A stretch of DNA of 61,145 bases from a virus. Under the pieces are notes generated by a model, which made no database searches, was not told the origin of the DNA, and worked only from the letters and a program-made list of their open reading frames with translations. The stretch is from UHGV virus genome UHGV-0030196; one strand, 5' to 3'. Every line of letters begins with the position of its first letter. The first letter of the stretch is position 1. Shown here in pieces: positions 30,220 to 31,257 of this stretch. The position numbers were made by a program, and so were the translations under genes.

Positions 30220-31257
30220 ATGAGTAAGAAGTCGATCGAGAAAGAGTACAAACGGTTCCTGCAAACCGCTGCACGGTGGAAAGAGCTGGTGGTCGCAAAC
30301 TCTGTTTTCCATGATACCAGTTATGCCGGCGAGGAATTCCGCCATGTTGCACTAACACATGATCAGAATGTGCTAGAAGAAGCTGAAAAGTGCCTCACAG
30401 AATGGAAAGCCTTTGTTGACTTGTGCCGTAACGCTGACGGCAAAGCGTCTAACATTGTTGAGTCTGTATATTCTCCGATCCCATTCATTATCGAGGACAC
30501 AAATCAAAGCACGCATATTGTTGTGCAAAGCGCGACCACCACCCGCTCATTTACGCGCGAAAATCTGCTCAAAAAATATGATGCAATTATAAAGAAAAGC
30601 CTGAAAAACAAGATATTTTCGCAGATTGTTGGTGCACTTGAAGAAGAGCGCCGTTTTTTCGCATCAGAACCTGAAGGGGAAGTTTACCGGGCGCGCAAAG
30701 ATGGATACACAGATGTAGTGCTTACAACAAACATTGAAGGCAGCAATGCTCTGTCACGATTCAGGGTAGGCGCACACGGAGCCTTAGTGTTCGCAAAACT
30801 TCCGAACACCACAGTGCCCGTTGTTAATAATGTCGGCGAACGTCGCAGCATTACTATTTATTCTGGGGTTGAGTCGATACCTTGCGGCCTGCTTGGTGAC
30901 TTTAGTCTCTATCGCGTTCGCGATCTGGAGAAACACCAACCAAGCTATGTTGCGAAGTCATACATCTTGCGAAACATCGACATCCGCAATGAGAGCTTAA
31001 AGAACAAATCAGCCAAAATGCTTGAGGAAGCCGATCCGGCTATTCGCCATATCATTGAGCGTAAAATACAGACAGCACGCGAAGCGATGGCGAGACTGAA
31101 TAAAATGGATCTGGAGTTGTTAGACGTAATGATGACATCCGGAGATGACCTGACAGGCATAAAACTGACAGACGCGCGGAAAAGATACGGTAAAACCATA
31201 GAAGAACGTTACGGGTTCACTTTCTCCCAAACACAGCACGCCGCTAAACTCTGGTAA
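30220..31257 (+). CDS. 345-aa protein at the P1 c1 position; candidate immunity repressor
   Basis: Lies between lox-type site and pacB, convergent with pacB as c1 is in P1; no recognisable motif. Confidence 0.5.
   Translation: MSKKSIEKEYKRFLQTAARWKELVVANSVFHDTSYAGEEFRHVALTHDQNVLEEAEKCLTEWKAFVDLCRNADGKASNIVESVYSPIPFIIEDTNQSTHIVVQSATTTRSFTRENLLKKYDAIIKKSLKNKIFSQIVGALEEERRFFASEPEGEVYRARKDGYTDVVLTTNIEGSNALSRFRVGAHGALVFAKLPNTTVPVVNNVGERRSITIYSGVESIPCGLLGDFSLYRVRDLEKHQPSYVAKSYILRNIDIRNESLKNKSAKMLEEADPAIRHIIERKIQTAREAMARLNKMDLELLDVMMTSGDDLTGIKLTDARKRYGKTIEERYGFTFSQTQHAAKLW

Follow-up and report, generated by a model that had tools for sequence, protein, structure and literature searches.

The 61,145-nt virus genome UHGV-0030196, analysed over its full length (hereafter the window), carries at 30220–31257 on the plus strand an open reading frame (ORF) of 345 amino acids (aa) with an ATG start. 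An initial annotation, made from the DNA alone, had placed this ORF at the c1 position of phage P1, between a lox-type site and pacB and convergent with pacB. Both the ORF and this arrangement, the immC position, were confirmed. The same position is occupied in three relatives from metagenomic or SRA data (L008, L009 and L010), which keep the synteny recombinase–c1–pacB–pacA–lpa and whose C1 proteins are 44–52% identical. The ORF very probably encodes C1, the primary immunity repressor of a D6-like, P1-family Escherichia coli phage-plasmid, and is a distant homologue of P1/P7 C1 with operators of its own.

The nearest relative is D6 (records AY753669 and MF356679), whose C1 (AAV84948 and D6_1/ASR76322, respectively) also has 345 aa and shares 90% aa identity with the window protein. 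It was labelled [quoted passage not shown] in AY753669 (2004) and "prophage repressor, similar to P1 gene C1" in MF356679 (2017). The window gene is orthologous to this annotated c1 and belongs to the curated C1 family; it is therefore a known member of an already known kind. That it might be unrelated cargo, one of the options in the initial annotation, is refuted by this homology and by the existing c1 label in D6. Besides the length of C1, both genomes share the rox site, the neighbours dre, pacB, pacA and lpa, and the 65 nt preceding the c1 ATG, which are identical and include the operator described below. They differ in that the c1 region and the D6 immC region (both records) are 84% identical at the nucleotide level and in the heavily diverged spacer farther upstream, between rox and the c1 promoter. 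Relative to D6, c1 is under strong purifying selection (ratio of nonsynonymous to synonymous substitution rates, dN/dS, 0.059; dS ~0.95), with values of 0.053 for the core and 0.076 for the C-terminal part. Approximately 25 plasmid records of ~90 kb each, mostly from E. coli, match the window region at 99% identity.

Kinship with P1 C1

The initial annotation had seen no similarity to P1 C1, a view that several lines of evidence contradict. BLASTP aligned the window protein to P1 C1 with 22% identity over 167 aa (E=1e-7), and PHROG 1678 includes both proteins over their full length (E=1.9e-158 for the window protein, E=2.6e-140 for P1 C1). When alignments of D6-type and P1-type C1 were compared as profiles by hhalign, residues 7–241 matched residues 8–246 over 230 columns with 97.6% probability (E=2.7e-12). 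The NCBIfam model NF041318 (phage_rep_C1) aligned to aa 7–240 (E=4.4e-5, 23.1 bits), and PF27008 (Phage_P7_repressor_C1) is precomputed on every homologue retrieved, D6-type relatives (44–96% identical to the window protein) and P1-type C1s alike. Moreover, when the window and the complete D6 genome were searched with P1 C1 by tblastn, the c1 gene was the only match in each.

The likeness to P1/P7 C1 includes a homologous core of ~240 aa encoded in the same slot between lox-type site and pacB, whereas P1 C1 has 283 aa instead of the 345 aa of the D6 type and the identity is only ~20%. Related C1 genes were reportedly found in all four P1-related phages according to an abstract of 2004, with D6 the most divergent. 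An exhaustive profile search for the C1 family among 1.84 billion proteins returned 134 cluster representatives, mostly of 250–285 aa, roughly ten of which have the D6-type extension; other long members carry different C-terminal tails.

Neither the Pfam copy searched nor a PDB sequence search gave any match for D6-type or P1-type C1. The empty Pfam hmmscan is explained by the absence of PF27008 from that copy. For most RefSeq plasmids, the Prokaryotic Genome Annotation Pipeline (PGAP) labels the repressor gene "hypothetical protein", because D6-type C1 scores 23 bits, far under the 500-bit cut-off of NF041318, which is an equivalog model.

Operators and the predicted regulon

An asymmetric motif with the consensus RTGTTAGAAAAYTAATTT is repeated ~15 times in the window. 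One copy, with the core ATGTTAGAAAACTAA, precedes c1; it reached a score of 29.8 in the 22-nt span rated by our position weight matrix (PWM), and its core ends 14 nt before the ATG. The operator-like motif that the initial annotation had noted 17 bp before the ATG is hence real, as exactly 17 nt separate the ATG from a 17-mer whose last base is 30202. Its proposed role in autoregulation is consistent with a conserved operator-like site in front of the ATG, in the stretch that is identical in D6.

When the c1 upstream region was used to seed a search, about nine further close copies turned up in the window, and the PWM built from these copies yielded 14–15 strong sites, compared to 0.1–0.3 in Markov-1 controls. 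With up to two mismatches allowed, RTGTTAGAAAWYTAA matched at 16 places where 0.95 were expected, a number reached in 0 of 100 dinucleotide shuffles. The midpoints of 13 of the 15 sites fall within the 9.9% of the window that lies outside long ORFs (binomial P=7e-12). Five sites form inverted pairs with a constant gap of 16 nt between TGTTAGA and TCTAACA, which recall the bivalent operators of P1. The D6 genome has 17 sites, most of them at corresponding positions, and the core before c1 is present also in L008, L009 and L010, in L008 before lpa as well. A second, degenerate and inverted copy lies 82 bp upstream of the c1 operator (30110–30118), in an island conserved between the window and D6 (Table 1); L008, L009 and L010 have a perfect inverted TGTTAGAAA 83–95 bp upstream of the c1-proximal site. 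In L009 (JGI 3300039866), the C1 homologue P0008 (10001–11080) has a called start that overlaps the operator core (TGTTAGAAA at 10002); this protein has an N-terminal extension not found in its relatives, and its true start is probably farther downstream.

In P1, C1 is known to act on 22 asymmetric 17-bp operators, whose consensus is ATTGCTCTAATAAATTT. Under its control are RepL and Lpa (PMC8546580) as well as ref, dmt, kilA, ssb and ban (PMC4713147). The P1 record annotates Olpa and Oc1a–e. At the sequence level, this family trait of many dispersed asymmetric operators of ~17 bp, mono- or bivalent and located at lytic or early promoters including those of lpa and repL, is present in the window, with one site before the repressor's own gene and a regulon overlapping in lpa, repL, immI, ref and the dmt operon (Table 1). 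The repL-like gene corresponds to D6_20, annotated as "similar to P1 repL", and the hrdC/RdgC-like gene heads the methylase (dmt) operon in D6. In the immI-like module, the operator is followed by the a1b1 targets, the C4 RNA and then, according to the D6 annotation, icd and the antirepressor gene. A second icd-antirepressor pair is annotated elsewhere in the D6 genome.

The P1 consensus ATTGCTCTAATAAATTT had no match at up to three mismatches in the window or in D6, and the same search recovered the annotated operators of the P1 immC fragment. A C1 homologue in this genome thus needs some other set of sites. Conversely, the D6-type core was not found in the P1 fragments examined. Aligned by hand to the P1 consensus, the D6-type operator agrees at 12 of 17 positions in one orientation (with TCTAA in common) and at 8 of 17 in the other; the geometry of the inverted pairs, compared with P1 Oc1ab, favours the latter. 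Each repressor type thus appears to have a set of operators of its own, while most of the regulon is common to both, as would be expected of heteroimmune members within a single family. The initial annotation had considered a heterologous immunity repressor. The part that stands is the view of the protein as, most likely, an immunity repressor whose operator specificity is unlike that of P1; it is not unrelated to P1 C1, since it is a diverged homologue.

We propose that C1 would bind the mapped operators, probably as a monomer, as has been reported for P1 C1. Binding would occlude the promoters and keep lytic functions off in the plasmid prophage, and this repression would confer immunity to superinfection. 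C1 may also repress its own gene through the operator in front of it. Given an operator unlike the P1 consensus, heteroimmunity to P1 and P7 would be expected of the phage. To the established picture, this analysis adds an explicit operator consensus and a site map for D6-type phage-plasmids.

Table 1. Coordinates of the c1 locus, putative operators and associated features in the window (operators and their functions are predicted).
Feature	Position	Strand	Evidence
c1, 345-aa C1-family primary immunity repressor of D6 type (very probable)	30220–31257	+	ORF, D6 C1 identity, PHROG 1678, hhalign, dN/dS
Core region, aa 7–241, homologous to P1 C1 aa 8–246; predicted Tus-like alpha/beta fold	30238–30942	+	hhalign, NF041318, AF2, PDB match
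D6-type-specific C-terminal extension, aa 242–345, two long helices and a small end of three helices, not present in P1 C1	30943–31254	+	Alignment, predicted structure
Ribosome-binding site AGGA, 5 nt before c1 ATG	30211–30214	+	Sequence
Operator upstream of c1 (core at 30191–30205), putative autoregulation site overlapping c1 promoter/transcription start region	30187–30208	+	PWM, exact match, conservation
Degenerate inverted operator-like copy (TTTCTAAAT on + strand), putative function	30109–30125	-	Conserved island window/D6
rox site, lox-type 13-8-13, 32 bp, identical to D6 rox	29987–30018	.	Sequence and D6 comparison
Dre-type (Cre-like) tyrosine recombinase, upstream side of c1	28806–29834	-	ORF and D6 comparison
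Likely terminator between convergent c1 and pacB, GC-rich hairpin GCCCCG-cattgc-CGGGGC, then TTTAT	31264–31281	.	Read from sequence
pacB (terminase large subunit), convergent with c1	31329–32837	-	ORF and D6 annotation
pacA, next to pacB	32837–34201	-	ORF and D6 annotation
Operator (inverted pair) upstream of lpa (34198–34590, -), analogue of P1 Olpa	34664–34685	+	PWM; P1 Olpa annotation; D6 site 4627
Operator upstream of repL-like lytic replication gene (50875–51837, -)	52006–52027	+	PWM; D6 site 22462
Operator (inverted pair) upstream of immI-like module	50804–50825	-	PWM; Rfam; D6_18/19 annotation
a1b1 targets (Rfam c4-a1b1, 54.4 bits), downstream of operator 50804	50662–50714	-	Rfam
C4 antisense RNA (Rfam C4, 68.8 bits), downstream of operator 50804	50509–50594	-	Rfam
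Operator (inverted pair), divergent region upstream of ref homologue (12166–12744, -)	12806–12827	-	PWM
Second ref-associated site, at ref 3′ end	12151–12172		PWM
Bivalent operator (2612/2630) upstream of hrdC/RdgC-like gene (1698–2603, -)	2612–2651	.	PWM; D6 sites 64111, 64129
Operator (inverted pair) upstream of pdcB-like HNH gene (17062–18057, +)	17003–17024	-	PWM; D6 sites 80704, 80722
Operator upstream of orf2-orf3-dut operon (28388–28744 and onward, -)	28786–28807	+	PWM; D6 site 89943
Operator 12 nt upstream of pmgS-like gene (38622–39842, -)	39855–39876	-	PWM; D6 sites for the pmgS-area group 10315, 9066, 8910, 11358
Further pmgS-area sites	38603–38624, 38447–38468; weaker 40898–40919		PWM; D6 sites as above
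Operator in divergent intergenic region 10028–10253 (mat-like/simB-like genes in D6)	10217–10238	-	PWM; D6 site 72195

Several other features of the locus are worth recording. The hairpin between c1 and pacB was read from the sequence and was not called by a simple scan. A near-consensus sigma-70 promoter (TTGGCA-16-TATAAT, 11 of 12 positions; 29978–30005, minus strand) lies inside the rox site and is directed toward dre. Over the c1-pacB spacer and the last pacB codons, 52 bp (31283–31334) are 98% identical to a segment annotated as "hypothetical protein" in more than 100 Shiga toxin (Stx)-converting lambdoid phages (933W, VT2-Sakai and others), and the homology to D6 ends exactly at this stretch. 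In the plasmids NZ_OY754396, NZ_OY757137 and NZ_OY757108, the match to window positions 29800–31400 is split in two over ~2.9 kb with a transposase (insQ) annotated within the split, pointing to an insertion sequence in the dre-c1-pacB region; these plasmids are otherwise 99% identical. Finally, five tRNA genes (Met-CAT, Ser-TGA, Thr-TGT, Tyr-GTA and Arg-TCT) are located at 36120–37381 on the minus strand. D6 has Ser, Thr and Asn tRNAs on the opposite strand at the corresponding place, i.e., the tRNA island differs in content and orientation.

C-terminal extension, regulatory circuit and predicted fold

The D6-type C1 proteins end in an extension of ~100 aa with many residues that are invariant among them and with no significant Pfam match. 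Guesses at its role include oligomerisation or looping, or antirepressor docking. That it could be a fused Lxc corepressor was rejected at the sequence level, as BLASTP gave no alignment to P1 Lxc at E≤100. Three candidates for stand-alone homologues of this domain (P0098, P0154 and P0159) turned out to be frameshifted or chimeric fragments, not separate proteins.

The circuit around c1 differs from that of P1 in several respects. P1 has the five operators Oc1a–e before c1, the window a single strong one, and the operators themselves differ (ATTGCTCTAATAAATTT in P1, RTGTTAGAAAAYTAATTT in the D6 type). P1 also possesses coi, imcA, imcB and lxc, which the D6 type lacks: in the window and the full D6 genome, no tblastn match to Coi, ImcA, ImcB or Lxc had an E-value under 0.78, and there is no conserved small ORF between rox and c1 in either. 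The absence of lxc was noted previously (PMC6799933); here, it is documented together with that of Coi and ImcA/B alongside the conserved C-terminal domain. Unlike the coi promoter of P1, the surroundings of c1 contain no LexA box according to a scan of the window for CTGT-N8-ACAG. The sole such sequence in the window (24418–24433, CTGTATGAATAAACAG) is ~20 nt upstream of ORF 24454–24843, and one is expected by chance.

No classical DNA-binding motif is assigned to the C1 family (P1, P7 and D6 types) in the libraries searched. We examined structure predictions made with AlphaFold2 (AF2). A model of D6-type C1 (predicted local distance difference test score, pLDDT, 86.3) was compared with the PDB by Foldseek, and its only significant matches were four Tus-Ter entries (E=1e-7 to 5e-6, probability 1.00), the next one following at E=0.14. 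A second, independent model of a P1-type C1 with 98% identity to that of P1 itself (70-sequence alignment; pLDDT 92.1, predicted template modelling score, pTM, 0.77) again had Tus as its sole significant match, with E=2e-9 to 3e-8 and template modelling (TM) scores of 0.44–0.51 over essentially the full length of both proteins. Across the models, TM-scores to Tus were only 0.34–0.51. Homology to Tus at the sequence level was rejected: comparison of the C1 family with Tus by hhalign was not significant (4.7%, P=0.0085), and the Tus family PF05472 had no match in the window protein and faint ones in 2 of 70 family members (best E=0.012).

Tus acts on its asymmetric site as a monomeric clamp, and monomeric binding to asymmetric operators has been reported for P1 C1 too. 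A Tus-like fold, as predicted, would for this reason be mechanistically coherent. E. coli Tus (PF05472; PDB 1ECR, 4XR0-2) and C1 would resemble each other in predicted fold and in the asymmetry of the DNA site, while Tus arrests replication forks rather than repressing transcription and has no significant sequence relationship to C1. Tentatively, and with slightly less than even confidence, we suggest from these models that the C1 family may adopt the rare Tus fold and may read its asymmetric operators as Tus clamps Ter, implying an evolutionary link between P1-family repressors and Tus, and that the C-terminal helical domain of the D6 branch may have taken over the modulation provided by Lxc and Coi. 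We found no paper in the searchable literature that mentions both Tus and the C1 repressor; the prediction of a Tus fold common to C1-family repressors is added here.

Competing explanations and biological meaning

Some observations weigh against reading the ORF as a C1 repressor acting on the mapped sites. At 23.1 bits, the window protein stays far from the 500 bits of the NF041318 equivalog and is thus a distant homologue; the circuit is not identical to that of P1 because Coi, ImcA/B and Lxc are absent; and a simple scan revealed no convincing sigma-70 promoter for c1 on the plus strand. The protein is tied to the motif by homology, position and the logic of the regulon. Covariation between repressor and operator within the D6 type was uninformative, as relatives with 44–52% identical proteins keep the TGTTAGAAA core, and the contrast that we see is that between D6 type and P1 type alone. 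The last points would also suit a motif bound by some other factor, either a phage regulator or a host protein, with the C1 homologue reading a different, unnoticed site: the link of protein and motif is drawn from sequence, and the core stays invariant where C1 has diverged. We regard this as very improbable, since the motif is the only strongly over-represented one found from the c1 upstream region, stands before c1 and before genes that C1 controls in P1, and is laid out as P1 C1 operators typically are, asymmetric and either mono- or bivalent, in a genome from which the P1 consensus is missing.

The low identity of 22%, the lack of a match in the Pfam copy searched, the PGAP label on most plasmids and an operator unlike that of P1 might indicate that a heterologous non-C1 repressor or unrelated cargo has replaced c1 at this position. 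Such a replacement is very improbable in view of PHROG 1678, to which P1 C1 belongs as well, of PF27008 on D6-type relatives and P1-type homologues, of the hhalign probability of 97.6% and the alignment of NF041318 over the whole core, and of AF2 models that have the same order of secondary-structure elements. The predicted fold raises a further option, namely that the protein is a Tus-like polar replication-fork barrier (contrahelicase) instead of, or besides, a transcriptional repressor. Against this stand the well-established role of P1 C1 in repressing transcription (PMC8546580, PMC4713147), the location of the sites at promoters, often in inverted pairs rather than in oppositely oriented groups on either side of a terminus, and the lack of a significant sequence link to Tus (hhalign 4.7%); a fork barrier is extremely improbable.

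For the D6-like phage-plasmids, common among E. coli, Salmonella and Shigella, these results confirm the use of a diverged C1-family repressor, and little else changes. Given the "hypothetical" label assigned by PGAP, annotation could benefit from the operator consensus and site map, which could also help to predict immunity groups among P1-family phage-plasmids with resistance genes. If confirmed, a Tus-like fold of C1 would provide a structural explanation for the reading of asymmetric 17-bp operators by P1 C1 and a candidate relative for Tus, which could matter more than the identity of c1 itself.
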